From contig JACQSC010000004.1 of the NCBI GenBank assembly GCA_016206155.1, positions 7,450 to 71,449 on the forward strand: a stretch of DNA of 64,000 bases. The letters are read 5' to 3'. Source of the DNA: Candidatus Uhrbacteria bacterium (GTDB lineage: Bacteria; Patescibacteriota; Patescibacteriia; JACQRZ01). The notes under the pieces were generated by a model, which was not told the origin of the DNA, searched no databases, and was given only the letters and a program-made list of their open reading frames with translations. Every line of letters starts with the position of its first letter. Position 1 is the stretch's first letter. The translations under genes and the position numbers were made by a program. This document shows, piece after piece, positions 4,171-58,883 of the stretch.

Positions 4171-4177
4171 AATGGCA

Positions 4178-4210
4178 GGGTACAGGGTTTAGGGTACAGG
4201 GTTTAGGGTT
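4178..4210. repeat. heptanucleotide tandem repeat GGGTACA/GGGTTTA (about 4.7 units); opposite strand CCCTAAA encodes the C-terminus and TAA stop of the 4189..5613 gene
   Basis: Direct reading: gggtacagggtttagggtacagggtttagggtt. Confidence 0.85.
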
Positions 4211-9876: not shown

Positions 9877-10434
9877 ATGTACCTCTTCATTCATGCAGCA
9901 GAACGAGAGTATGCGTATCTCCTGCTCGTTGGCAAAAGCATGCCCCGCACCACGATGCGGGGTAAGGAATTGTTAGAATTCCTTACTTTTGGTGACCTCG
10001 TTGTTTATACAAAGTACCTTGTGTATCGGGGAAAGAAATCCCCCGATGTGTTGCGCGGCATCGATGATCTACTGAATCAATTTGGTCTCGCAGCAAAAAG
10101 TCTGAAGGGCATCTGCGTGCTTTCCGGTCCGGGGCAATTTTCGTTTTTGCGAACATCGGTGGTAACTGCCAACACTTTTGGGTGGGCGTTGAACATTCCG
10201 GTTGTTGGTATTTGCGACAAGAAAATGGTGTCTGGTTCCAAGAAAATGGTGTCAGGTACAATTTCCGAAGAAATTGAACCAGACACCATTTTCTCAGACA
10301 CCATTTTCTCGCATAACACCATTTTGTTCATCACGCGCGGTCTCAAAAAGCTCTCGCGCACAAAACGTTTTCGTCCGGTTGTCCCGGAGTACGGCAGAGA
10401 GCCCAACATCACGACGCCGAAGAAAAGAATATAA
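9877..10434 (+). CDS. tsaB: TsaB (YeaZ)-like N-terminal domain protein carrying an in-frame palindromic repeat insertion
   Basis: LSGPGQFSFLRTSVVTANTFGWALNIPVVGI matches the TsaB GPGSFTGLRIG...A..LP..G motif; the C-terminal part is atypical. Confidence 0.5.
   Translation: MYLFIHAAEREYAYLLLVGKSMPRTTMRGKELLEFLTFGDLVVYTKYLVYRGKKSPDVLRGIDDLLNQFGLAAKSLKGICVLSGPGQFSFLRTSVVTANTFGWALNIPVVGICDKKMVSGSKKMVSGTISEEIEPDTIFSDTIFSHNTILFITRGLKKLSRTKRFRPVVPEYGREPNITTPKKRI
10221..10325. repeat. 105-bp nested palindromic element: 2x GAAAATGGTGTC(A/T)GG, central palindrome, then 2.5x inverted copies
   Basis: Direct reading; the same 15-nt termini recur at 14769..14822. Confidence 0.85.
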
Positions 10435-10545: not shown

Positions 10546-10821
10546 ATGCAACTCGCGCGTATAAGCTCGCAGAAACAAATAACCATTCCCTCAAAGCTTT
10601 TTCGAAAACTTAAGCTTGATATCGGAGACCATATTGGCATTTCTGAAGAGAATGGCACGCTCGTTTTGCGCCCCTATAAACTCATTCCAAAGGATCAGCT
10701 CTGGTACTGGACAGAGGAGTGGCAAAAGATGGAACGAGAGGCGGACGAGGACATCGCCGCAGGCCGTGTGTCGGGACCCTTTACAACGGTTGAGGAGTTT
10801 ATGAAGGATCTCAAAGCGTAA
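10546..10821 (+). CDS. AbrB/MazE/SpoVT-family antitoxin
   Basis: QKQITIPSKLFRKLKLDIGDHI swapped-hairpin motif; immediately upstream of a RelE-like ORF. Confidence 0.7.
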   Translation: MQLARISSQKQITIPSKLFRKLKLDIGDHIGISEENGTLVLRPYKLIPKDQLWYWTEEWQKMEREADEDIAAGRVSGPFTTVEEFMKDLKA

Positions 10822-10828
10822 GGAGTGT

Positions 10829-11086
10829 ATGCAGATTCTTCGTACCCGTTCTTTTGAGCGCGAGTTTGTGAAGTTGCCGAACGATGTTCGGGAGCGATTT
10901 GTGCAAAAGCTCGATTTTTTTCTTTCAGACCCATTTCATCCTTCTCTCCGCTCCAAGAAAATGCAAGGAAGAATAGATATTTGGGAAGTGAGTATAACCA
11001 TGAACTATCGCTTTACATTTGATAGAGATGGTGGCGTGATCCATCTCCGTCGAATTGGGACGCACGATATCCTTAACAACCCCTAA
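10829..11086 (+). CDS. type II toxin RelE/ParE family
   Basis: 85-aa ORF with a RelE/ParE-like pattern (FVKLPNDVRERF...GRIDIWEV...RFTF...IHL). Confidence 0.75.
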   Translation: MQILRTRSFEREFVKLPNDVRERFVQKLDFFLSDPFHPSLRSKKMQGRIDIWEVSITMNYRFTFDRDGGVIHLRRIGTHDILNNP

Positions 11087-11087
11087 T

Positions 11088-12332
11088 GTGGATCTTTTTG
11101 ATTCCCACTTACAGTCCAAAAACCATGCGCCGCTTGCCGATAGGATGCGGCCTACTACGATCGATGAGATTGTGGGGCAGGATCATATCTTGGGGCAAGG
11201 AAAAGTATTGCGTACGCTGATTGAAAAAGATCAACTTCGCTCGATTATCTTCTGGGGTCAGCCCGGGACCGGAAAAACGACTATTGCATCAGTCATTGCG
11301 CGGTCGACCGGTGCGGATTTTGTCGCACTCTCTGCCGTGAACACCGGTGTAAAAGAGGCGCGCGTGGTTATTGAGAAAGCAAAGGATTCATTAAAATTTC
11401 ACCACAAGCGGACCATTCTTTTTATCGACGAGATTCATCGCTTTAGCAAATCACAGCAAGACGCGTTTTTGCCCGCTGTAGAGGACGGCACAATTATTTT
11501 GATAGGCGCGACAACGGAGAATCCTTCGTTTGAGGTGAACTCTGCCTTGCTTTCGCGTTCGCGGGTCTTTGTGCTTAATGCGCTCAACGACGAAGCGCTT
11601 TCTCATATTCTTGATCGGGGACTGAATATGGTGTCTGAAATGGAGTCAGGCGCAGATCCCATTTCACTTGACGAGACAGCGCGCCGCGCACTTATTGATG
11701 CATCTAATGGCGATGCACGCACACTTCTTAACATGCTTGAATATGCTTTACTCTTGATTGGTGATAAAAAAGTAATTGGCTTGCCTGTGGTGCAAGAGGC
11801 AATTCAACAGAGCATGCTGAGATACGATAAAAATGGAGAAGAACATTACAATGTCATATCCGCGTTTATCAAAAGCATGCGCAACTCGGATGCCAATGCG
11901 GCGCTGTATTGGATGGCGCGTATGATTATGGCGGGGGAGGATCCGCTTTTCATTGCGCGGCGCATGGTCGTGTTCGCATCAGAAGATGTGGGACTTGCCG
12001 ATCCCAAGGCAATCATGGTCGCCACTTCTGTTTTTCAGGCAGTGCACGCAATCGGTATGCCGGAGGCGCGTATTCCGCTTGCGCACTGCGCGGTGTATTT
12101 GTCAAAGGCGCCACGAAATAACTCCGCATACATGGGTATTGAAGCGGCGCTCTCTGACGCGAAGGAGCACGGCAATCTTCCGGTCCCGCTCCATTTGCGC
12201 AACGCCCCGACAAAGCTGATGAAAGACTTGGACTATGGCAAAGGGTATCAGTATGCGCACGACTTCAAGGAAAAAATAGCAGATATGCAGTGCATGCCCG
12301 ACGAGTTGAAGGACAGGCGATACCTTTTTTGA
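11088..12332 (+). CDS. rarA: replication-associated recombination protein A (MgsA/RarA)
   Basis: AAA+ Walker A GQPGTGKTT, sensor motifs, MgsA C-terminal domain; GTG at 11088 follows the relE stop (the track ORF starts at TTG 11055). Confidence 0.9.
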   Translation: MDLFDSHLQSKNHAPLADRMRPTTIDEIVGQDHILGQGKVLRTLIEKDQLRSIIFWGQPGTGKTTIASVIARSTGADFVALSAVNTGVKEARVVIEKAKDSLKFHHKRTILFIDEIHRFSKSQQDAFLPAVEDGTIILIGATTENPSFEVNSALLSRSRVFVLNALNDEALSHILDRGLNMVSEMESGADPISLDETARRALIDASNGDARTLLNMLEYALLLIGDKKVIGLPVVQEAIQQSMLRYDKNGEEHYNVISAFIKSMRNSDANAALYWMARMIMAGEDPLFIARRMVVFASEDVGLADPKAIMVATSVFQAVHAIGMPEARIPLAHCAVYLSKAPRNNSAYMGIEAALSDAKEHGNLPVPLHLRNAPTKLMKDLDYGKGYQYAHDFKEKIADMQCMPDELKDRRYLF

Positions 12333-12368
12333 TGAACTCAAAAAATAGCGAAAGGGTAAAATCAACGG

Positions 12369-12408
12369 CTAAACCGGTTTAGCCGTTGATTTTTTGTTAT
12401 AACAGCAA
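12369..12408. terminator. rho-independent terminator after rarA (18-bp perfect stem followed by a T-run)
   Basis: aaaatcaacggctaaacc / ggtttagccgttgatttt followed by ttgtt. Confidence 0.75.
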
Positions 12409-12937
12409 TGTTTTTATAGCACATTCTCATGTTATGCACAGTTGCGTGGTTGAAGGGGGTATGTTTGTGGTGTATAATAGGCATTACATGGTGAAATGTG
12501 GGGAAAAGTGGTGGATAAGTAGGGGACAAATGTGGACAAATAAATGGTTCACAACCCGAAATGCTTATAACTGTAAGCAATAAGTCAAAATGACAAAGCC
12601 CAAATACCAAATCAAATCAAAAGTTCAAATACTAACAAATGGCCCTGTATTTTTGCCATTAGGATTTTTTCATTAGGATTTTTCAAACTATGCTTGTCGT
12701 GTCTTATTTACTAGCAAACAGGAAGTTTTTATACGGGTATCTGCGAAGCGCCATTGCCACCGCGCATCCCCATGCCGCGCGGTGGCGAAGGCCGAAAATC
12801 TAATGGTTTCATTGTTAAATTGCAGAAAAGTTTTATTCCCATAGAGGTTTCTCTAACACGTTTGGACACAGATTAAAGAGATTAAAACAACAATGTGCGG
12901 TAGCAATGTAACAATTTGACAATAGAGCAATGCAACT

Positions 12938-13369
12938 ATGTTCATAGGCGAATACAATCATTCAATCGATGAAAAAGGCCGACTGGCGGTACCGGCGAAG
13001 TTTCGTGCTGAGCTGGAAGATGGCGCAGTTGTCACGCGAGGGCTTGATAACTGCCTTTTTTTGTATACTCAGCAGGAATGGAACATCCTTGCCCCACGCA
13101 TAGCCCAGCTTCCGATTCATCAGGCGAACAGTCGTGCATTCTCGCGACTGATGTTATCCGGCGCCATGGATGTACAAGTCGATAAGCAGGGAAGAATTAT
13201 TGTACCCGACTATCTTCGCTCATACGCCAAACTCAAGAAAAAGGTGGTTATTGCCGGTCTCTACAATCGTCTTGAAGTGTGGGATGAAGCTATCTGGGCA
13301 GATTACAAGATGCACACAGAAGAGGAGAGTGGGGATATTGCGGAGCAGTTGGGGGAGCTGGGAGTCTAA
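12938..13369 (+). CDS. mraZ: transcriptional regulator MraZ
   Basis: Duplicated MraZ domains (DEKGRLAVPAKFR / DKQGRIIVPDYLR). Confidence 0.95.
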   Translation: MFIGEYNHSIDEKGRLAVPAKFRAELEDGAVVTRGLDNCLFLYTQQEWNILAPRIAQLPIHQANSRAFSRLMLSGAMDVQVDKQGRIIVPDYLRSYAKLKKKVVIAGLYNRLEVWDEAIWADYKMHTEEESGDIAEQLGELGV

Positions 13370-13370
13370 A

Positions 13371-13449
13371 TACATTGTTACATTGTTACATTGCTGGCGT
13401 TTAACAATGTAACATAAGTGAGCGAAGCGAGCGATAACAATGTAACAGT
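13371..13449. repeat. cluster of ACAATGTAAC / GTTACATTGT motifs between mraZ and rsmH (tacattgt x3 tandem, then 2 inverted copies)
   Basis: Direct reading; another copy at 12903..12915 upstream of mraZ. Confidence 0.8.
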
Positions 13450-13469
13450 TGATTGTTTGAGTAAGTGAA

Positions 13470-14366
13470 ATGATGATACAGCATAAAACGGTTTTACGAG
13501 AGGAGGCGATTCGTTACTTAGGTGTTCTTTCAAATCATCATTACGTTGACTGCACATTGGGCGGCGGCGGCCACACAGAAGCCATACTGGATCGTAACGG
13601 GACAAAAGGACGCGTCATAGCGTTTGAGCTTGATGCTGATACGATTGTACGGACGAAGAGGCGTCTCAAGCGTTTTGGCGCACGATTGATTGTTGTTGAG
13701 GATAATTTTAGAAGTATTGGGAGAGTAACAGAATATGGTATGCCGATCTCCGGAATACTCTACGACCTTGGTACGTCGATGGACCTTTTGAAAAGCAGCG
13801 GTCGCGGATTTTCCTTCCTTGTCGATGAACCGCTTGATATGCGATTCTCTCTTTCAACAGAGAGAACAGCCGCAGATCTTATCAGAACAACACGGGAATC
13901 TGAGCTTGCCGATCTCATTTTTCGATACGGAGAGGAGCGATTGAGCCGCCGCATCGCCCATGCAATAATGCAGACACGTACGCACACTTCTATCACGACC
14001 ACGCGCGAGCTTGTTTCGGTCATTGAGCGGGCGGTGCCGCCATCATATTGTCGAGGTCGTATCCATCCAGCAACACGAACCTTTCAGGCGTTGCGCATCG
14101 CAGTCAATGATGAATTGGAGTGCCTTTCAGAGTCCCTTGAGCAGGCAATGGCGCTTATTGAAAGGGGTGGACGCATCGTCGTCATTTCGTTCCACTCGCT
14201 TGAAGATAGGATTGTGAAACAGTTCTTTCGAATACAAAAATTAAAAAAAACAGGCATCATTTTAACGAAAAAGCCGATTACTCCTTCGCGCGAAGAGATT
14301 GAGAAAAATCCAAACTGCCGCAGTGCAAAACTTCGCGCGCTGGAAATACTAACCCCTAGACCCTAA
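13470..14366 (+). CDS. rsmH: 16S rRNA (cytosine1402-N4)-methyltransferase RsmH
   Basis: DCTLGGGGH SAM-binding motif, mraW family layout, dcw position. Confidence 0.95.
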   Translation: MMIQHKTVLREEAIRYLGVLSNHHYVDCTLGGGGHTEAILDRNGTKGRVIAFELDADTIVRTKRRLKRFGARLIVVEDNFRSIGRVTEYGMPISGILYDLGTSMDLLKSSGRGFSFLVDEPLDMRFSLSTERTAADLIRTTRESELADLIFRYGEERLSRRIAHAIMQTRTHTSITTTRELVSVIERAVPPSYCRGRIHPATRTFQALRIAVNDELECLSESLEQAMALIERGGRIVVISFHSLEDRIVKQFFRIQKLKKTGIILTKKPITPSREEIEKNPNCRSAKLRALEILTPRP

Positions 14367-14385
14367 ACCCTAAACCCTAAACCCT
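14353..14385. repeat. CCCTAGA/CCCTAAA heptamer tandem repeat (4.5 units) overlapping the rsmH stop codon
   Basis: cccctagaccctaaaccctaaaccctaaaccc; rsmH ends ...LTPRP* with its TAA inside the repeat. Confidence 0.85.
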
Positions 14386-14390
14386 TCTTT

Positions 14391-14768
14391 GTGTCGATCA
14401 GTTTCAAAAGAATAAAAAGCAAGTGGACATCAACCGAAGCTATTCGTAGCCAAAAAATTGCTCTCTCTTGCCATAAGCTGTCACGGGCGCACATTGGTGT
14501 TCTCTTGACAATCGCCGTTTTTTCACTAGTCTATCTCGTACAAGTGAATACGCTTGCGACAAAGGGATATGCAATTCGAGAGCTCGAGCGGGATATTGCG
14601 ATTCAAAAGAAGGAATACGAACGGCTTCAGCTTGATATCATAGAAAGACAGAGCATGGGCGCACTGCAGGAGCGTATTGCTCAATTGGGCTTTGTTCCGG
14701 CTGATCGCATTGATTACCTTTCACCGACCGCTGCGGTTGCGACGGCTGTTGCAAAACCATCACGCTGA
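14391..14768 (+). CDS. ftsL: FtsL/DivIC-like cell division protein
   Basis: Single TM helix plus coiled coil; located between rsmH and ftsI. Confidence 0.55.
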   Translation: MSISFKRIKSKWTSTEAIRSQKIALSCHKLSRAHIGVLLTIAVFSLVYLVQVNTLATKGYAIRELERDIAIQKKEYERLQLDIIERQSMGALQERIAQLGFVPADRIDYLSPTAAVATAVAKPSR

Positions 14769-14822
14769 GGTGAAAATGGTGTCAGGAATAGTTTCTGCAA
14801 AAACTATTCCTGACACCATTTT
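14769..14822. repeat. 54-bp perfect palindrome with GTGAAAATGGTGTCAGG termini (second copy of the 10221 element family); likely intergenic hairpin or terminator
   Basis: 25-bp arms, 4-nt loop, directly after the ftsL stop. Confidence 0.85.
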
Positions 14823-14913
14823 CACTAGGAGAGAAGTGTAATCCGCATGGGGCGCGACACGTCTCGCGAGAACAACCAGCGACTTTTCTGCGCGCTGGTT
14901 GTTTTTGATTTGA

Positions 14914-16857
14914 GTGGATTTTGATACAATAGATACTATGATGACATTTCGTTCACGTACGAAACGAAGATCTGTGCGCGCTCATCAATTGGGCGGTTTC
15001 CATGCAATCCAGTCGCTTAAAGCTCTTGTTCGCATTGACCGCATCAGCTTCCTGAGGGGGTGCTTGTTTTTCTTCGTGCTCATATTGTTCCTGCGCCTCT
15101 TTAACCTCCAAGTTTTAAGTTACGAGGACTATCGGACGGCAGCGGAGGGCGAACATCAATTATTGAGAAAAATTCATCCCGACAGAGGAAGTATCTTCCT
15201 GCGAGAACGTTCTGCCAACGGGAGCGCAAACCAGTATCTGATGGAAGTTGAGGGGGAAAAGCTTTTTCCCGCGGTAACGAATCGTGAGTATATGCTCGTC
15301 TATGCGGTGCCAAAATCAATCAGTGACCCAGAAAAGGTCGCCGATCAACTTATGCCGCTCTTTGACATTCCAAAAGAGGAGCCAAAGAGCGATGATGACA
15401 ACAACGGTGACAAGGATGGCATTGATCCGCGCGAAGAGCGGCGTGCGTGGCTCGTTCAAAGACTGTCAAAGAAGAACGATTCGTACGAAGTGATCAAGAG
15501 GAAGGTGCCGGCGGCAAGCTGGGATATAATCAAAAAGCTGTACATTGGCGGAATCAACGCAAGCCCGGAAAGCTATCGGTTTTATCCCGAAAAGGGATTG
15601 GGCGGGCATCTTTTTGGGTTCGTGGGGTATAGCGGCGAGAGCGTCAAGGGGCTGTATGGGCTCGAGGGTTATTTTGACGATATTCTGAAAGGTAAGGAAG
15701 GATCTTTGCGATTCGAGTCAGATGCCCTTGGCGCGCTGATTCCCATCGGGGAAAAGCGCGTTGTTGAGGCGGTTCAGGGAAGCAACCTTGTATTAACGAT
15801 TGACCGAACAATTCAGCTCATGGCGTGCGATCGCCTTTCAAAATGGGTTCTCAAACACGGCGCCGATGGAGGGACCGTTGTTATTATGAATCCCAATACC
15901 GGAGCCCTCTATGCCATGTGCAGCGTACCCGACTTTGATCCTGAAAACTATTTTGATGCAGATGTGAAGCAGTATCCGAATCCCTCAATTTTTACTCCCT
16001 ATGAACCTGGTTCAATATTTAAGCCGTTTACCATGGCAATGGGCATTGACAGTGAAAAGGTTGCCCCGGCAACGACCTATGTTGATACCGGCGAGGTAAA
16101 AATTGGATCGTTCACCATCAAAAATTCTGACAGCAAAGCGCACGGCAAACAAACCATGATGGATGTTCTCGATCAATCACTCAATACGGGCGTGATCTTC
16201 GTCGCGCGCAAAGTCGGTATCGACGCGTTTCGTGATTACGTAAAGAATTTTGGTTTTGGGAAGCCGACAGGCATAGAGCTTGACCGGGAAGTATCCGGTA
16301 CGATCGCGGGACTGAACGAGAAGCAGGAGATTTATATGGCAACCGCATCATTCGGTCAGGGTTTGAGCGTAACGCCGCTCCAAATTACCACTGCCTACGC
16401 CGCTCTTGCCAACGGGGGCAATCTTGTGCAACCCTATGTTGTAGATGAGATTATCAAGTCTGACGGCAGCCGCCATCGCACCAATCCAAAAGTAGTCCGA
16501 CGGGTCATATCGGAAAAAACTTCAACACTCATCAGCAGTATGTTGGTGAACGTTGTGCGCAAAGGACACGGGAAGCGCGCTGGTGTTGACGGCTATTACG
16601 TCGCGGGCAAAACCGGCACCGCGCAAGTTGCACGCAGTGACGGCAGGGGGTATGAGCGCGACATCACAATCGGCTCATTTGCGGGTTTTGCGCCCGTTGA
16701 TAACCCTCGGTTTGTCATGCTTGTCAAAGTAGACCATCCACGGGATGTTCAGTGGGCGGAAAGTTCCGCGGCGCCACTTTTTGGCGAATTGGCAAAATTT
16801 TTATTACAGTATTTTGAGGTGCCGCCTGATGAAACAGAATCAAGAAGCAAGAATTAA
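14914..16857 (+). CDS. ftsI: peptidoglycan D,D-transpeptidase FtsI / PBP2-type penicillin-binding protein
   Basis: SIFK (SxxK), KTGTA motif, PBP dimerisation domain; acidic low-complexity insertion. Confidence 0.9.
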   Translation: MDFDTIDTMMTFRSRTKRRSVRAHQLGGFHAIQSLKALVRIDRISFLRGCLFFFVLILFLRLFNLQVLSYEDYRTAAEGEHQLLRKIHPDRGSIFLRERSANGSANQYLMEVEGEKLFPAVTNREYMLVYAVPKSISDPEKVADQLMPLFDIPKEEPKSDDDNNGDKDGIDPREERRAWLVQRLSKKNDSYEVIKRKVPAASWDIIKKLYIGGINASPESYRFYPEKGLGGHLFGFVGYSGESVKGLYGLEGYFDDILKGKEGSLRFESDALGALIPIGEKRVVEAVQGSNLVLTIDRTIQLMACDRLSKWVLKHGADGGTVVIMNPNTGALYAMCSVPDFDPENYFDADVKQYPNPSIFTPYEPGSIFKPFTMAMGIDSEKVAPATTYVDTGEVKIGSFTIKNSDSKAHGKQTMMDVLDQSLNTGVIFVARKVGIDAFRDYVKNFGFGKPTGIELDREVSGTIAGLNEKQEIYMATASFGQGLSVTPLQITTAYAALANGGNLVQPYVVDEIIKSDGSRHRTNPKVVRRVISEKTSTLISSMLVNVVRKGHGKRAGVDGYYVAGKTGTAQVARSDGRGYERDITIGSFAGFAPVDNPRFVMLVKVDHPRDVQWAESSAAPLFGELAKFLLQYFEVPPDETESRSKN

Positions 16858-16916
16858 GAATTATGCGTGGACGTCACACCCTTGACTCTTAATTCGTAAT
16901 TCGCAATTCTTCAAGG
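16843..16916. repeat. AAGAATT-type repeat plus imperfect inverted copy (hairpin) spanning the ftsI stop
   Basis: aagaagcaagaattaagaatt ... aattcgtaattcgcaattctt. Confidence 0.7.
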
Positions 16917-25713: not shown

Positions 25714-27619
25714 TAGAAGGGGCGCGCTCATTGCCGCGGCGATGCTCACTCTTGTCTTTATCGGAGGGATTGTTTTTCTTTGGTCATACGATGTGTGGTA
25801 TCAAGGGAAAATCATGCCCGGTGTTATGATGGGCAAGCGAATAGTTGGTTCATATAGCCCAGAATACACCGACGATATGCTCGAAGCGTATAGAGAGCGC
25901 CTCCGCCTCCAGGGCGCAGTATTCTCATTTAAAGGAAAAAACGTAACACTTTATTCAGTTCCCACCACACTCAATGCAGATATTCCAATCCAGACAACGG
26001 ATTACCTTTTTGACATTAACAGCGACGCAACCATTGCATCGCTGATGGCGGTTGGGCGCACCGGCTCGCTCCAACGGCAACACGTTGATCGCATGCGCAG
26101 CGCAATCGCAAAGACCTCAATTGCACCCGTCATCACAATCGACCGACAGCGCGTCATTGATCAACTAAAAAAAGAATTCTCCTTTTTCCATACACCGGCC
26201 ACAAACGCGCGCTTCGCCACTGATGAGAAAGGCGCCATCACAATAACGCCTGAGACTCGCGGCATTGAGTTTGATTACGATAAAGCGCTTGCCTCCCTTG
26301 CCGTTCAACTTTCCTCGCTGGAGCAGCCAACCATTCATCTTGACGAAGGCGCAACACTCCCCGACATCACAACACGGGACCTCGAGAGCGTGCGGAGCGG
26401 TGTCGAGCAGTTGATTGCCGAACCGCTCGAGATTACGTTTGAGAATAAAGAATCCGACCCACCACAAAAGCGCGCGTGGACACTTTCCGGGACACTTTTG
26501 TTGTCATGGGTAAAACCACAGCGGTCATCTGGTGGGCAGGCCGAAATTCAATTTGATCGGGGAGCGATAAGCGACTATCTCAAAGAGAAGATTGCTCCCG
26601 ATGTGCGCGTTGACGTCGTGCATCCTCGATTTGAGATGAAGAATGGCCGTGTTGTCGCATTTGATATTCCGCGTGACGGACGAGAGCTCGACAGCGAGAA
26701 AACAGCTGATGTGATTAGTGCATCGCTGACCGATCGACGTATTTCCGCTCAGATTGTTGTTCGCACAATCCAGTCCCCGTTTCGCCAGAGTGCGGACTCC
26801 GAGCCGGTCATTAAGGAGCTCCTCTCCCGCGCGGAAACAGACTTTTCAGGAAGTTCTAAAAATAGAGTGGCTAACATTGCGCGCGGCGCCGAGCTTATCA
26901 ATGGAATTCTTCTCGCGCCCGGCGAAGAATTCTCAACGAACAAAGCCTTGGGGGATGTTGATGCCGCGCACGGATTTTTTCCCGGATTGGTCATTAAGGG
27001 AACGGAGACCGTGCCGGAATACGGAGGCGGCTTGTGCCAGGTTTCAACAACACTTTTCCGCGCCGTGGCATTTGCCGGACTCGAGGTGCGTGAACGCAGG
27101 AATCACTCATACCGCGTATCATTCTATGAGCCACCCGTAGGGTTTGACGCAACGATTTATGGCACGTCGCCTGACTTTCGATTCAAGAATGATACCCCTT
27201 CGCATCTTCTCATCCAAGCACGAACCGTGGGCAACAAAATGATCGTTGAGTTCTGGGGGAGCAAAGATGGCAGAACGGTTGAAGTGGATACTCCGCGTGT
27301 CTTTAACATAAAAAAAGCCGGCCCGCCGAAACTCATTGAAACCGACGAGCTTGCGCCCGGTGAAAAAAATTGCACAGAAAAAGCACATAACGGCGCCGAT
27401 GCGGTGTTTGAGCGCCGCATTACGTACGCCGACGGAACCACAAAAAAAGAAACCTATAAAAGCCACTATGTTGTGTGGCCGGCGGTCTGCCTGATTGGAA
27501 AAGCAAAGGAAGATCCACCTCCACCTGATTCGAGTGCGCAAGAGAATACATCATCATCCGCTCAAGCTATTTTTTCGGACAGCCAAAAACAAGAATCGGC
27601 GCCAACGCAAGCACCGTGA
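25688..27619 (+). CDS. VanW family protein (membrane-anchored, with N-terminal peptidoglycan-binding-like region)
   Basis: GGGLCQVSTTLFRAVAFAGL...RNHSYRVSFYEPPVGFDATIY VanW core; TM after MNHPSPHRNRRG. Confidence 0.8.
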   Translation: MNHPSPHRNRRGALIAAAMLTLVFIGGIVFLWSYDVWYQGKIMPGVMMGKRIVGSYSPEYTDDMLEAYRERLRLQGAVFSFKGKNVTLYSVPTTLNADIPIQTTDYLFDINSDATIASLMAVGRTGSLQRQHVDRMRSAIAKTSIAPVITIDRQRVIDQLKKEFSFFHTPATNARFATDEKGAITITPETRGIEFDYDKALASLAVQLSSLEQPTIHLDEGATLPDITTRDLESVRSGVEQLIAEPLEITFENKESDPPQKRAWTLSGTLLLSWVKPQRSSGGQAEIQFDRGAISDYLKEKIAPDVRVDVVHPRFEMKNGRVVAFDIPRDGRELDSEKTADVISASLTDRRISAQIVVRTIQSPFRQSADSEPVIKELLSRAETDFSGSSKNRVANIARGAELINGILLAPGEEFSTNKALGDVDAAHGFFPGLVIKGTETVPEYGGGLCQVSTTLFRAVAFAGLEVRERRNHSYRVSFYEPPVGFDATIYGTSPDFRFKNDTPSHLLIQARTVGNKMIVEFWGSKDGRTVEVDTPRVFNIKKAGPPKLIETDELAPGEKNCTEKAHNGADAVFERRITYADGTTKKETYKSHYVVWPAVCLIGKAKEDPPPPDSSAQENTSSSAQAIFSDSQKQESAPTQAP

Positions 27620-27623
27620 AATT

Positions 27624-27656
27624 AAAAAAACGGCTTTGTGGCCGTTTCTTTAATTT
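27624..27656. terminator. putative terminator after the vanW-like gene
   Basis: aaaaacggc-tttgtg-gccgttt stem followed by a T-rich run. Confidence 0.5.
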
Positions 27657-28075
27657 CAGACAGAAACCTGCAGACAAGAAAATGTACTATTCGCATATTC
27701 GAGCCAAAGGCCCAAATGACGGATACCACATCCCCATGCTTGTCGTGTCTGCAGAGTTCTGTCTGAAACTGTCTGTAAAGAACGCACATGTAACGTGTAG
27801 CCGACAGTCTACCACAGCCACGGATCTTGTCAAGAGTGGTAGGTGTCCCATTTTAGTGTTCACGTCAATTTTCCTTATGGTTAAAGAAAAATGCCTCTTT
27901 CTATTCATCAGTTCAATAAGCAAGTGCACCACTTAGGGGTTCGATGTTTCCGCGGTACACTCCGTGGATATGGCATACACACACCATTCCCAAGACGAGC
28001 GCGAGAACGCTCAATCGCGTCAGCGCTTCCGGAACCCATCGCTCCGTATAACGCACCGAAGGAAAAACCAAAAAT

Positions 28076-37439: not shown

Positions 37440-37444
37440 ATATG

Positions 37445-37579
37445 CCCCGCACTTAAGAACGATTGTTGCCCATTATTCATCCGTACGTTTATGATGCACA
37501 CCACCATTATTATTGATCAAACGATTTTCTCAGTGTACATACGACGAAACACGGGGATGAATCGTTCTTAAGTGCGGGG
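37445..37579. promoter_or_regulatory. perfect 20-bp inverted repeat (CCCCGCACTTAAGAACGATT / AATCGTTCTTAAGTGCGGGG) enclosing 95 nt, ending 1 nt before the rpiB ATG
   Basis: Direct reading; 20/20 complementarity. Confidence 0.8.
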
Positions 37580-38033
37580 TATGCTGTATATTGCCTCTGA
37601 TCATGCAGGATTTGCATTAAAGGAATACCTCAAACGATTTTTGAAAAAACACTCAATTGCCGTTGAGGATATTGGCGCACATAGATACGATAAGGCGGAT
37701 GATTTTCCTCGCTATGCGTTTTCCCTTTCAAAAAAAGTCGCCTCGGATTCCTCACATCGCGGAATTCTTCTTTGTGGAAGCGGGCAAGGCATGTGCATTG
37801 CGGCAAACAAAGTAAGGGGCATACGCGCAGCATCTGTGTGGAACAAAAAAAGCGCTATTGCTTCGCGACACGACGATGACACAAACATTCTTTGCCTTTC
37901 CGGCCGCATGCTCACGAGAAAAGAGACTGAAGAAATTCTTTCATCGTGGCTCTTTACCGGATTCTCCGGTTTGGCACGCTATAAGCGCCGGCTAAACCAA
38001 ATTGCCGCCTACGAAAAAAACTCCCGCGCATAA
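37572..38033 (+). CDS. rpiB: ribose-5-phosphate isomerase B
   Basis: MLYIASDHAGF...LLCGSGQGMCIAANK RpiB/LacAB motifs; the likely start is ATG 37581. Confidence 0.9.
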   Translation: MRGMLYIASDHAGFALKEYLKRFLKKHSIAVEDIGAHRYDKADDFPRYAFSLSKKVASDSSHRGILLCGSGQGMCIAANKVRGIRAASVWNKKSAIASRHDDDTNILCLSGRMLTRKETEEILSSWLFTGFSGLARYKRRLNQIAAYEKNSRA

Positions 38034-38234: not shown

Positions 38235-38343
38235 ATACCCATTATTTATTATTTAATACCTATTAGTATAGCACATTTAAAAAAATTAACTCCCTTGCTA
38301 TACTATACTAAACCCTAGACCCTAGCCACTAGACCCTATTTTT

Positions 38344-52045: not shown

Positions 52046-52165
52046 AAAGAATGAAGAATCAAGAATTAAGAATTAAGAATTAAGAATTAAGAATTAAGAA
52101 TTAAGAATTAAGAGGACCCATGATATGCCTTGCTTCGTAATTCTTACTTCTTAATTCTTCATGAT
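52046..52165. repeat. (AAGAATT)x7 tandem repeat followed by an inverted partial copy (hairpin-forming), between ftsH and pilB
   Basis: Direct reading. Confidence 0.9.
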
Positions 52166-52198
52166 TGCAATGAATACAAACCATGAGAACAGAGCTTG

Positions 52199-55317: not shown

Positions 55318-55497
55318 TATTGACCTTCGCCTATTGCGTTAACATGAAAAATGTATGATTTTGAGACAGATCCGCTGCTCTGGAACCGCAAAAAACCACA
55401 GTCGTACTATCAGTACGATGAGGATTTTTTGTGGCGAAGAGCAAGGAGCTGGTCAAAATCATAGGCTTTTCGTTAAGGTAATAGGCGAAGGTCAATA
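55318..55497. promoter_or_regulatory. 180-bp element bounded by perfect 18-bp inverted repeats (TATTGACCTTCGCCTATT / AATAGGCGAAGGTCAATA), filling the hppA-rpsA intergenic region (rpsA leader)
   Basis: Direct reading; internal hairpin cgtact-atc-agtacg. Confidence 0.8.
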
Positions 55498-57487: not shown

Positions 57488-57496
57488 ACAAGAAAA

Positions 57497-57530
57497 GGGG
57501 TTAGGGGTTAGGGGTTAGGGGTTAGGGGTT
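57497..57530. repeat. (GGGGTTA)x5 tandem repeat; the opposite strand supplies the last codons (TPNP) and TAA stop of nusA
   Basis: Direct reading. Confidence 0.9.
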
Positions 57531-58764: not shown

Positions 58765-58772
58765 ACTAAATA

Positions 58773-58806
58773 GGGTTTAGGGTAGAGGGTTTAGGGTAGA
58801 GGGTAT
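58773..58806. repeat. GGGTTTA/GGGTAGA heptamer tandem repeat (about 4.7 units) between the CAP-domain gene and nusA
   Basis: Direct reading. Confidence 0.85.
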
Positions 58807-58883
58807 AGTAAAAAAGGATAGTGTAACCACTATCCTAATGTTTCATATACTACTACAAGCACCCTGTTTAGTCAAGGGGACGC

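Follow-up and report, generated by a model that had tools for sequence, protein, structure and literature searches.

The mraZ gene of this Candidatus Uhrbacteria genome is flanked by copies of a short motif, which raises the question of whether these copies are control sites of the mraZ operon or repeats of another kind. In the 64,000-nt stretch analysed here (the window), an earlier note had described copies of ACAATGTAAC around mraZ and had offered three readings, namely an alternative operator set for MraZ, an internal promoter region for rsmH-ftsL-ftsI, or a dispersed repeat. All of the listed copies are present, at slightly offset coordinates. The copy upstream of mraZ, GCAATGTAACAAT, spans 12903-12915 and precedes the ATG (12938) by 35 nt, and the reverse-orientation tandem copies, TACATTGT x2.9, occupy 13371-13393, 2 nt past the stop codon (13367-13369). 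The two last copies, each TAACAATGTAACA, are found at 13402-13414 and 13435-13447, not at 13402-16 and 13436-49 as first given. What had been missed is that the true repeat unit is an 8-mer, ARCAATKK, that the upstream copy extends into four consecutive RCAATNNR units (12902-12935), that an additional copy in the opposite orientation stands at 12803-12823, and that the copies pair as inverted repeats.

With at most one mismatch, the 10-mer matches the window eight times, where shuffled sequences give 3.3 +/- 1.8 matches. Six of these matches fall in 12806-13447, and the exact matches, three of three, fall in 13377-13446; the Poisson probability of at least six matches within 650 nt is ~2e-12. 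The spaced pattern (CAAT-N4)x2-CAAT, again with at most one mismatch, has five matches in the window where 1.08 are expected, all of them within the elements E1 and E2 (Table 1), and none of 100 shuffles gave five. Within the 64-kb window, the ARCAATKK unit is confined to the surroundings of mraZ. The motif cluster is thereby confirmed as real and far above chance.

We consider it probable (about 0.6) that E1 and E2 are two recent repeat insertions, specific to this lineage and built from 8-nt units, and that the motif copies make up their inverted arms. The two insertions would belong to a wider population of tandem arrays with 7-9-nt units, frequently arranged as inverted pairs, in intergenic spacers of this genome and of other Patescibacteria.

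Table 1. Features of the mraZ-rsmH region, in coordinates of the window.
Feature	Coordinates	Strand	Details
Sigma-70-like promoter, mraZ operon	12450-12478	+	TTGAAG-17-TATAAT
MraZ-box array (likely operator)	12490-12535	+	GGTG/GTGG cores with 10-bp period at 12490, 12498, 12508, 12518 (degenerate GTAG) and 12532
Conserved leader	12690-12802	+	Starts ATGCTTGTCGTGTC; hairpin 12750-12792, loop AUCCCCAUGC
E1	12803-12935	+	133-nt insertion between conserved leader and mraZ ATG
E1 left arm (L)	12803-12823	+	ATGGTTTCATTGTTAAATTGC; units in ATTG orientation
E1 right arm, array U	12902-12935	+	8-nt units AGCAATGT AACAATTT GACAATAG AGCAATGC
mraZ	12938-13369	+	143 aa; Pfam MraZ, E = 5.6e-40
mraZ-rsmH spacer	13370-13469	+	100 nt, nearly all E2
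E2	13370-13449	+	Just past mraZ stop; size 80-100 nt
E2 left arm, array A	13371-13394	+	TACATTGT x2.9 plus C, opposite orientation
E2 copy B	13402-13414	+	TAACAATGTAACA
E2 copy C	13435-13447	+	TAACAATGTAACA; 22 nt before rsmH ATG
rsmH (mraW)	13470-14366	+	Pfam Methyltransf_5, E = 1.5e-98

The promoter of the operon comes after the hairpin (12358-12393) that terminates the rarA/mgsA gene upstream. A scan of 12200-13700 found no other promoter-like site, and the promoter is identical base for base in the related loci L001, L002, L095, L169, and L170. It is followed by a period-10 array, detected by TRF at 12489-12526, which includes GTGG-N6-GTGG at 12498-12511. Published MraZ boxes are three to four direct GTG(G/T) repeats with 6-nt spacers and a 10-bp period, situated at the promoter (PMC12957436; bioRxiv 10.1101/2022.02.09.479790). 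Because the array matches these boxes and their 6-nt spacers, it is likely to be the true MraZ operator. GTGG boxes are kept in ~150 Patescibacteria mraZ loci. The box pattern precedes mraZ closely, on the + strand, in nearly all related loci, and it is without a match anywhere in only 14 of 168.

The conserved leader lies between these boxes and E1. In an alignment of seven lineages, 16 pairs are predicted for the leader, five of which show compensatory changes. The leader can also be read as a 36-aa ORF, the frame of which is broken in L169 although the hairpin is kept; judged from these comparisons, its behaviour is closer to that of a structured RNA than to that of an ORF. At the gathering threshold, Rfam returned only three tRNAs for the whole window; with E up to 10, it returned only chance miRNA/sRNA matches far below threshold for 12300-13520, and it returned nothing for five related loci. 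RsmH has a Candidatus Uhrbacteria counterpart in NCBI (P0001) with 100% identity.

The motif copies resemble MraZ boxes in that they are short repeats clustered at mraZ, with one copy upstream of the start codon. They are tightly grouped at mraZ with none elsewhere in the 64 kb, and arrays of direct repeats are what MraZ binds (PMC12957436; bioRxiv 10.1101/2022.02.09.479790), so that auxiliary operators, used for looping or roadblocking around the gene's own locus, could be imagined. However, the ARCAATKK copies carry no GTG(G/T) core and no GTGG, their period is 8 nt (TRF) instead of 10 nt, and they occur in both orientations. A conserved canonical box array already stands at the mraZ promoter, ~430 nt upstream of mraZ, whereas the motif copies are 325-970 nt away from the sole promoter-like site, all on its downstream side and most of them beyond mraZ. 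In addition, the motif is missing in L169, L170, L172, L001, and L002 (MraZ 78-87% identical, both DXXXR motifs invariant), and it is wholly missing in the closest relatives, which have a near-identical MraZ (85-87%) and the same promoter; the unit also occurs between uvrA and uvrC in L121. These results speak against an alternative MraZ operator set and make even an auxiliary role highly improbable. MraZ autoregulation would instead act at the GTGG boxes, not at ACAATGTAAC.

For E1, the left arm is a minus-strand match of (CAAT-N4)x2-CAAT and has 86% identity with its counterpart in E2, and the two arms of E1 are 92% complementary (12811-12823 versus 12903-12915). Array U contains the first copy of the earlier note and ends 3 nt before the mraZ ATG; its CAAT core is invariant in four of four units, and the remaining four positions are variable. 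The GC content of E1 is 33%, compared with 48% for the whole window (range for E1 and E2, 33-35%), and its predicted fold pairs both ends (z = -2.1). L002 has no E1, and TATG comes there immediately after the leader end, AATCTAATGGTTTC. L001 is also without E1, and L169, L170, and L095 have a different sequence at this position.

For E2, array A has a period of 8 with 2.9 copies and a 100% match (TRF), and copies B and C comprise 1.6 units each. Copy B is complementary to 13376-13388 at 13 of 13 positions, with a 13-nt loop between, and the predicted local A:B hairpin has an energy of -13.2 kcal/mol. In the alternative A:C pairing, 13369-13388 is 85% complementary to 13435-13454. The A:C pairing closes the spacer in the MFE and centroid folds alike (-30.1 kcal/mol, z = -3.3), and none of 200 shuffles folded as stably. 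The mraZ-rsmH spacer is only 7 nt long in L169, L170/171, and L172, the RsmH proteins of which are 76-80% identical, and 13 nt long in L001, which has no E2. Spacers of less than 25 nt are found in ~60% of 149 Patescibacteria loci, and this comparison suggests that the ancestral spacer was ~7 nt.

E2 is missing in L169, L170, L172, and L001, and the surroundings of the elements, with promoter, boxes, and leader, are conserved. Since the closest relatives have the same promoter and boxes and lack both elements, E1 and E2 are lineage-specific insertions. As for how they arose, 8-nt ARCAATKK units would have filled two formerly very short spacers flanking mraZ, most likely through replication slippage and template switching or through local copying between spacers 450 nt apart, and less likely through classical transposon spread. 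Random insertion would not be expected to place both copies found in 64 kb at one gene, and their position may reflect a local cause or one connected with mraZ. Eight Logan contigs of one sample series carry the identical MraZ; over E1 and E2 their identity is 99.8-100%, and they are uninformative on unit-number variation or covariation.

Mobile elements would be another possible source of such insertions. Correia elements are among the small palindromic repeats, for which RNase III processing has also to be considered. E1 and E2 could be read as MITEs or REP-like palindromic repeats, given that they have terminal inverted repeats and hold their left and right ends in common (86% and 85%), that they are small (133 and 80-100 nt), non-coding, and AT-rich with arms that are 92% (E1) and 85-100% (E2) complementary, that their presence varies among relatives, and that an element with similar arms occurs at another locus in a distant lineage. 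REP/BIME and other bacterial MITEs are small palindromic intergenic repeats that are co-transcribed with genes (PMC3184786, PMC3733652). They and the Correia elements are like E1 and E2 in being short non-coding insertions with inverted ends between co-directional genes, with stem-loops in the mRNA (predicted for E1 and E2) and variable presence. In such families, however, the whole sequence is common to all copies, of which a genome contains tens to hundreds, and target duplications or a GTAG/CGTC tag are frequent. The tandem-unit arms are all that E1 and E2 have in common, and their interiors are unrelated (BLAST against all loci and the masked window), so that the two did not arise as plain copies of a single mobile element. 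Neither element has a visible target-site duplication, and no further copies are found in the 64-kb window. An origin as MITE-like elements is thus improbable.

The arms also form a longer inverted repeat, in that 12902-12923 in array U and 13374-13395 at array A make up a 22-nt inverted repeat, 91% complementary, that brackets the mraZ ORF exactly. Such copies might be recombination sites of an mraZ inversion switch. This reading is scarcely credible, because all eight independent contigs with this mraZ have the same orientation and sequence, the ORF list contains no recombinase gene nearby, and inversion would part mraZ from its promoter without evident benefit.

The predicted stem-loop of E2 is stable, stands directly past the mraZ stop codon, and is followed by the moderately U-rich GUUGAUUGUUUGAG, as might be expected of a terminator or of an attenuator that would reduce transcription past the end of mraZ. 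The spacer might also hold the internal promoter for rsmH-ftsL-ftsI that had been proposed. Conversely, the scan found no promoter-like or terminator-like sites in the spacer (13370-13469), nor any promoter or terminator signal on the + strand of 12478-13700, and the E2 stem is AT-rich and lacks a U-tract, its tail being GUUGAUUGUUUGAG, which is not the make-up of an intrinsic terminator. The sole sigma-70-like site in 12200-13700 is that upstream of the MraZ boxes, and the closest relatives lack the whole spacer; with only 7 nt in its place, they need no internal signal. The internal promoter is not supported, and a transcriptional role of E2 in either form is very unlikely. A promoter inside E1 or E2 was likewise rejected by eye and by scan, as TTGACA at 12915-12920 has no usable -10 and TTGNNN-17-TANNNT was not found.

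Under the preferred reading, as repeat insertions, both elements would be transcribed within the mraZ-rsmH mRNA, because the sole promoter signal lies upstream of both and no terminator signal lies between. In this mRNA, local pairing of the arms (L:U and A:B or A:C) would close each inserted spacer into a stem-loop, and pairing across the cistron (U:A, L:C) would be an alternative. Any effect would then come after transcription, through the stability or processing of the mRNA or through mraZ-rsmH translational coupling, and may be near neutral.

Arrays of this kind extend far beyond mraZ. In 859 kb (the window and related loci), 487 arrays with a period of 6-9 were found, versus 108-133 in Markov controls (~4-fold), and 99 arrays had an inverted partner within 250 nt, versus 7-11 in controls (~12-fold). 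A total of 258 of the 487 arrays are intergenic although only ~29% of the sequence is intergenic. The 64-kb window itself holds 19 such arrays, and its other elements of this type are at 16836-16910 and 52047-52167 (AAGAATT units), 10218-10325, and 14770-14825, the last of which is also missing in L169 and L172. The long mraZ-rsmH spacers of other lineages consist mostly of hairpins formed from lineage-specific tandem 7-9-mers, and in the same spacer the unit sequence changes from lineage to lineage, which amounts to rapid turnover. In addition, the ends of co-directional spacers are complementary (<= -12 kcal/mol) in 16% of cases, compared with 7% for mismatched end pairs (p = 5e-5). E1 and E2 have the same traits as these intergenic long-unit arrays, namely tandem intergenic 6-9-nt units, over-representation in the lineage, and rapid turnover.

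In L121, the ARCAATKK unit itself forms another hairpin, between uvrA and uvrC, and the unit is also present in L151, L089, L023, and L150. Array U is identical to an array before rsmH in L023 at 26 of 29 bases and to an array in L089 at 17 of 18 bases; its irregular stretch ACAATAGAGCAAT is found again in L089, and L023 carries ACAATAGAACAAT. The dispersed repeat of the earlier note therefore comes closest of the three readings, as the copies are arms of two repeat insertions and arrays of the same 8-mer occur in other Patescibacteria at other loci, but within the 64-kb window the unit is found only around mraZ.

The invariant CAAT of array U and the return of its irregular stretch in L089, with ACAATAGAACAAT in L023, are more in keeping with a recognised core under constraint than with neutral slippage. 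The units, (AACAAUGU)n with CAAT every 8 nt, might then be sites of a putative sequence-specific protein, for which the most plausible candidate would be a single-stranded-RNA binder acting where translation of mraZ and rsmH begins. Since a spacing of 8 bp does not fit the helical repeat, a protein that binds DNA is a less likely candidate. We know of no LexA, NtcA, parS, or DnaA box motif that fits ARCAATKK. The core is invariant and the flanking positions are variable in array U and in the arrays of other lineages alike, although this invariance is partly circular, since the arrays of other lineages were selected by requiring CAAT. Unit arrays stand directly before start codons, 3 nt from mraZ here and before rsmH in L023, L003, L098, and L132, and Shine-Dalgarno motifs are rare upstream of the genes of the window; TAACTGA arrays upstream of start codons without Shine-Dalgarno motifs are a published analogue (PMC4679880). 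Against this, 134 arrays in co-directional spacers show no start-side preference (67 versus 67), neither composition nor stop codons show strand asymmetry, no candidate protein was found, and the closest relatives lack the unit and express the same genes without it. A protein-site function is thus possible but doubtful.

Tandem heptanucleotides are known in cyanobacteria as STRR, and T7 epsilon and TMV omega are motifs with which a translation-enhancer reading of arrays can be compared. In Beggiatoaceae, Cyanobacteria, and Bacteroidetes, TAACTGA heptamer arrays stand just upstream of start codons without Shine-Dalgarno motifs and have been proposed as S1, Csp, or CsrA-like sites (PMC4679880), and in Xanthomonas and Nostoc there are GGGAATC/GGGGAYT heptamers, some of them as inverted pairs (PMC4692102). 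The arrays in question are similar to these in that tandem 7-9-nt units occur only in intergenic spacers with 2-10 copies per array, in their fast turnover of length and sequence between relatives, with slippage as the suspected origin, and in that some stand directly before such start codons and some are inverted pairs able to form stem-loops. The unit flanking mraZ differs in having 8 nt and another sequence. The Beggiatoaceae arrays are dominated throughout the genome by a single unit that points towards start codons, whereas in Patescibacteria many units coexist (ACAATGTA, AAGAATT, ACCCTAA, and others), without orientation or position bias across loci. A search of the literature did not find such arrays described in Patescibacteria.

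A general translation-enhancer rule, by which arrays would stand at start codons with a G-poor sense strand, found no support: the G<C bias has p = 0.07, 67 arrays are nearer the start and 67 nearer the stop among the 134 in co-directional spacers, and both strands are equally closed to translation.

If the arrays are functional, they would offer a way into the control of gene expression in a phylum that has few regulators and makes only weak use of Shine-Dalgarno sites. One speculative form of this idea, which we hold to be unlikely, is that Patescibacteria have an undescribed class of post-transcriptional operon stem-loops, with tandem 7-9-nt arms and a short conserved core (CAAT every 8 nt), that close co-directional spacers and are read by a conserved RNA-binding factor or RNase to set the expression of neighbouring cistrons in genomes largely without Shine-Dalgarno sites. 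In that case, E1 and E2, which bracket mraZ, would tune the dosage of MraZ against that of RsmH and the downstream division genes. If the arrays are neutral, they would be traces of mutagenesis by slippage or template switching, and regulon predictions from motifs in these genomes would have to allow for them. In either case, the small genomes of Patescibacteria, usually called "streamlined", contain fast-turnover long-unit arrays and array-built palindromes in their few spacers, even inside essential operons. For mraZ, the conspicuous ACAATGTAAC copies appear to be the wrong place to seek MraZ autoregulation, which should rather be looked for at the GTGG boxes, behind the long conserved and probably structured leader.

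A scan for (CAATGTAA)x2.5 found the repeat in six unrelated viral contigs, with GC contents of 30%-58% and in non-homologous contexts; the unit recurs there, and this says nothing about function. Forward orientation next to the start codon was seen for array U and for several other arrays of the window.

The start of the dcw cluster was found in the window on the + strand; an NCBI protein of a Candidatus Uhrbacteria MAG matches its RsmH at 100% identity, and all MraZ relatives retrieved come from Patescibacteria (CPR) genomes. The motif copies claimed in an earlier note are present around mraZ, essentially where they had been placed. The repeat unit is an 8-mer (ARCAATKK), represented by 2.9 copies of TACATTGT at 13371-13393 with a 100% match (TRF). 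The exact 10-mer ACAATGTAAC has three matches in 64 kb, all inside 13377-13446; with one mismatch allowed, eight matches were observed, where shuffles gave 3.3 +/- 1.8, and 12806-13447 holds six of the eight (Poisson probability ~2e-12). Likewise, all five matches to three CAAT at an 8-nt period (<=1 mismatch; 1.08 expected) fall in the two mraZ-flanking spacers. Overlooked in the earlier note were the continuation of the upstream copy as four units (AGCAATGT AACAATTT GACAATAG AGCAATGC; array U, 12902-12935), which end 3 nt 5' of the mraZ ATG, an extra copy in the opposite orientation (12803-12823), and the inverted-repeat arrangement of the copies. Each sense-orientation copy also contains ATGTAA, a start codon with an immediate stop (12906-12911, 13407-13412, and 13440-13445), and its TAA reaches all three frames, given the 8-nt period.

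Coordinates of genes, repeats, and conserved elements (window positions unless a related locus, L, is named)
Feature	Coordinates	Strand	Remarks
rarA/mgsA	11055-12332	+	ORF and Pfam calls
Terminator hairpin after rarA/mgsA	12358-12393
Conserved leader	12690-12802; L001 2495-2606; L002 2879-2990; L095 1098-1210; L096 379-490; L169 364-470; L170 1468-1575
E1	12803-12935		left arm ATGGTTTCATTGTTAAATTGC, right arm array U; arms 92% complementary
mraZ	12938-13369	+	Pfam MraZ, E = 5.6e-40
E2	13370-13449		array A, then two copies of TAACAATGTAACA (B, C)
rsmH	13470-14366	+
ftsL-sized ORF	14391-14768	+
ftsI	14914-16857	+
AAAATGGTGTCAGG palindrome family	10218-10325; 14770-14825
AAGAATT/AATTCTT palindromes	16836-16910; 52047-52167		tandem units up to 9.6
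ACCCTAA-type tandem heptamers	4176-4210; 14349-14385; 38308-38338; 57496-57530; 58770-58808	sense
ACCCTAA-type arrays in relatives	L169 1815-1850; L172 1205-1228; L002 2852-2882; L096 488-517 and 2001-2031

The copies form two inverted-arm elements, E1 upstream of mraZ and E2 after its stop, with a GC content of 33-35% vs 48% in the window. Their left ends are 86% identical (direct repeat pair D3) and their right ends 85% (D4), and their interiors are unrelated to each other; a classical MITE is unlikely, as whole-length homology between E1 and E2 fails. In the E1 RNA fold, the two ends are paired (-28.9 kcal/mol, z = -2.1). In E2, array A and copy B form a perfect 13-bp stem, and the A:C pairing closes the mraZ-rsmH spacer in the MFE and centroid folds (-30.1 kcal/mol, z = -3.3), with none of 200 shuffles equally stable. 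Because U and A are 91% complementary across 22 nt, they can also pair across the mraZ ORF in the fold of a 691-nt segment, the centroid of which retains the local hairpins. A DNA inversion switch was unsupported in eight contigs.

In the related locus L002, the leader ends in ...AATCTAATGGTTTC with mraZ immediately after, where the window holds ~125 additional nt, and L001, L169, L170, and L095 carry different, unrelated sequences of 20-135 nt at the E1 position. The mraZ-rsmH spacer is 7 nt in the closest RsmH relatives (76-80% identity: L169, L170/171, and L172), 13 nt in L001, and <25 nt in ~60% of 149 Patescibacteria loci. As judged from these sequence comparisons, E1 and E2 are lineage-specific insertions. 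There is no sign of altered MraZ DNA specificity, since the MraZ proteins of relatives with short spacers are 78-87% identical to that of the window and both DXXXR motifs are invariant.

The earlier note had proposed that the motif is an MraZ operator set or an internal promoter for rsmH-ftsL-ftsI. As an operator, the motif failed all four testable defining features. Published MraZ boxes are 3-4 copies of GTG(G/T) with 6-nt spacers at the promoter (PMC12957436; bioRxiv 10.1101/2022.02.09.479790). The internal promoter found no promoter signal in its favor: the sole sigma-70-like site in a scan of 12200-13700 is TTGAAG-17-TATAAT at 12450-12478. Directly 3' of it lie GTGG cores at period 10 (TRF array 12489-12526; GTGG-N6-GTGG at 12498), and promoter and boxes align nearly base for base with L001, L002, L095, L169, and L170. 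GTGG-N6-GTGG was seen on the + strand just 5' of mraZ in nearly all 168 fetched loci, 14 of which lack any match. These boxes, instead of the 8-mer motif, are likely the actual MraZ operator, at which binding is predicted; they lie ~430 nt 5' of mraZ in this lineage because a conserved leader intervenes. Promoter and terminator readings of E1 and E2 themselves are unlikely, as the signals are missing. The scan detected no terminator signal between the 12450-12478 promoter and the genes; E1 and E2, being located between this sole promoter signal and the genes, should therefore be present in the mRNA.

The leader, ~110 nt long, separates the MraZ boxes from mraZ in Uhrbacteria-like lineages. Its start is a nearly invariant ATGCTTGTCGTGTC, and its first hairpin is variable; in the second (window 12750-12792), the loop, (U)AUCCCCAUGC, is conserved, and compensatory changes affect 5 of 16 pairs. 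The leader is also readable as a 36-37-aa ORF (MLVVSYLL...AYPHA...); because L169 has lost the reading frame and kept the hairpin, a structured RNA is the likelier reading. The leader has no match in Rfam. A homologous ~90-nt structured insert lies after the leader in L095 (1215-1350) and before it in L169 (233-358), with the core GAGTRCAGTTCKAGGC...GAAGCGAGGAG/GAGCACCGGAG...hairpin...CGAMGRAATGTG, two inner helices with apparently compensatory changes, unrelated closing stems, fold z-scores of -4.8 and -4.2, and no Rfam match; it may be a small mobile structured RNA. In the window, a long imperfect hairpin (27654-27768; 29-nt arms, 86% complementary) follows a gene ending at 27619, and its loop and 3' arm, ACATCCCCATGCTTGTCGTGTC, fuse the leader motifs AUCCCCAUGC and AUGCUUGUCGUGUC. 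Just two exact copies of the 12-mer GCTTGTCGTGTC are present in the window, at 12692 and 27738.

The third proposal of the earlier note, a dispersed repeat, stood in part: within the 64 kb of the source genome that were searched, the motif occurs only around mraZ, but its unit recurs at other loci in other lineages. In L121/L123, the uvrA-uvrC spacer contains a hairpin built from the ARCAATKK unit (z = -4.3), L151 has a similar element at its start, and arrays of the unit were found 3' of rsmH in L089 and 5' of rsmH in L023, L150, L003, L098, and L132. Long mraZ-rsmH spacers in other lineages are very often inverted repeats of tandem 7-9-mers of lineage-dependent sequence, including CCTAATT, CAAAATG, ATCATGTA, TAACATGT, AAGAATT, and CGAAATT. 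Over 859 kb, 487 arrays of period 6-9 were counted vs 108-133 in first-order Markov controls, and 99 vs 7-11 have an inverted partner <=250 nt away; with simple longest-ORF gene calls, 258 of the 487 are intergenic, though intergenic DNA makes up only ~29% of the sequence. In addition, the ends of co-directional spacers are complementary in 16% vs 7% of mismatched end pairs (<= -12 kcal/mol; p = 5e-5), with no such signal in the small samples of convergent or divergent spacers. The motif is thus not tied to dcw and is a member of a wider class. The same tandem unit, as (TAACAATG)n with 2.5-6 copies, was also seen in six unrelated IMG/VR viral contigs (L175-L180) of very different GC, at least five of the six in apparently non-coding stretches.

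We give a probability of roughly 60% to a joint account in which E1 and E2 are young array-built insertions, present in the mRNA as stem-loops bracketing mraZ, with a post-transcriptional or near-neutral effect. Most simply, tandem arrays of the 8-mer, lying in either orientation, would recently have colonised the spacers beside mraZ, probably through slippage and template switching or through copying between spacers just 450 nt apart. Once transcribed, E1 and E2 would fold into stem-loops on either side of the mraZ cistron, which may also influence translation or the processing and decay of the mRNA. The ancestral mraZ-rsmH spacer was 7 nt, a length typical of translationally coupled genes. 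An insertion that is self-complementary would hold the stop and the next start spatially close, and such insertions may be tolerated because of this proximity.

The CAAT core is invariant in array U, the remaining positions of which vary, and the irregular stretch ACAATAGAGCAAT of this array is found again in L089, with ACAATAGAACAAT in L023, as might be expected if a sequence-specific reader recognised CAAT at an 8-nt period. Such a reader resembles that proposed for TAACTGA heptamer arrays, which precede SD-less start codons (PMC4679880), and Shine-Dalgarno motifs are rare in the window. However, we regard this explanation as unlikely and have not adopted it, because the arrays show no general start-codon or strand bias.

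Array-built insertions such as E1 and E2 add a case to a kind of repeat already known. The closest described are of two sorts. Intergenic long-unit tandem repeats comprise the TAACTGA arrays (PMC4679880), the GGGAATC/GGGGAYT heptamers of PMC4692102, which in part form inverted pairs, and the tandem heptanucleotides of cyanobacteria that the latter paper cites. REP and MITE are small palindromic repeats co-transcribed with genes (PMC3184786; PMC3733652). Our literature search found no account of such arrays in Patescibacteria.

More members of the wider class were found in the window, namely the AAGAATT palindromes and the AAAATGGTGTCAGG family. Both AAGAATT palindromes fill co-directional gene spacers, with the AATTCTT arm 10-12 nt 5' of the next start codon, and L027 and L150 also carry the heptamer between mraZ and rsmH. 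The palindrome directly after the ftsL-like ORF (14770-14825) forms a stem of 26 perfectly paired bp (-41.6 kcal/mol, z = -11), lacks a U-tract, and is missing from L169 and L172; 3' of it, a terminator-like hairpin, AACCAGCG...CGCTGGTTGTTTTT (about 14879-14905), is conserved. Two more long intergenic inverted repeats, neither of tandem units, lie at 37442-37582 (40-nt arms, 80% complementary, 61 nt apart) and 55318-55497 (26-nt arms, 92% complementary and 128 nt apart, within which a 19-nt pair is nested). Just 5' of rarA are two small overlapping ORFs (10546-11086), the second of which (85 aa) looks by eye like a RelE/ParE-type toxin. Shine-Dalgarno-like sequences are rare in the 60 nt before every called gene of the window, with clear cases only at about 10829 and 44020; G-poor repeats precede many genes instead. 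The ACCCTAA-type heptamers (ACCCTAA, ACCCTAG, AACCCCT, and ACCCTGT; plant-telomere-like CCCTAAA) end 5-8 nt 5' of the start codons of unrelated genes in at least the four arrays scored. One such array overlaps the final rsmH codons, just 5' of the ftsL-like ORF, and relatives carry arrays of this type at the same rsmH/ftsL junction with different unit counts.
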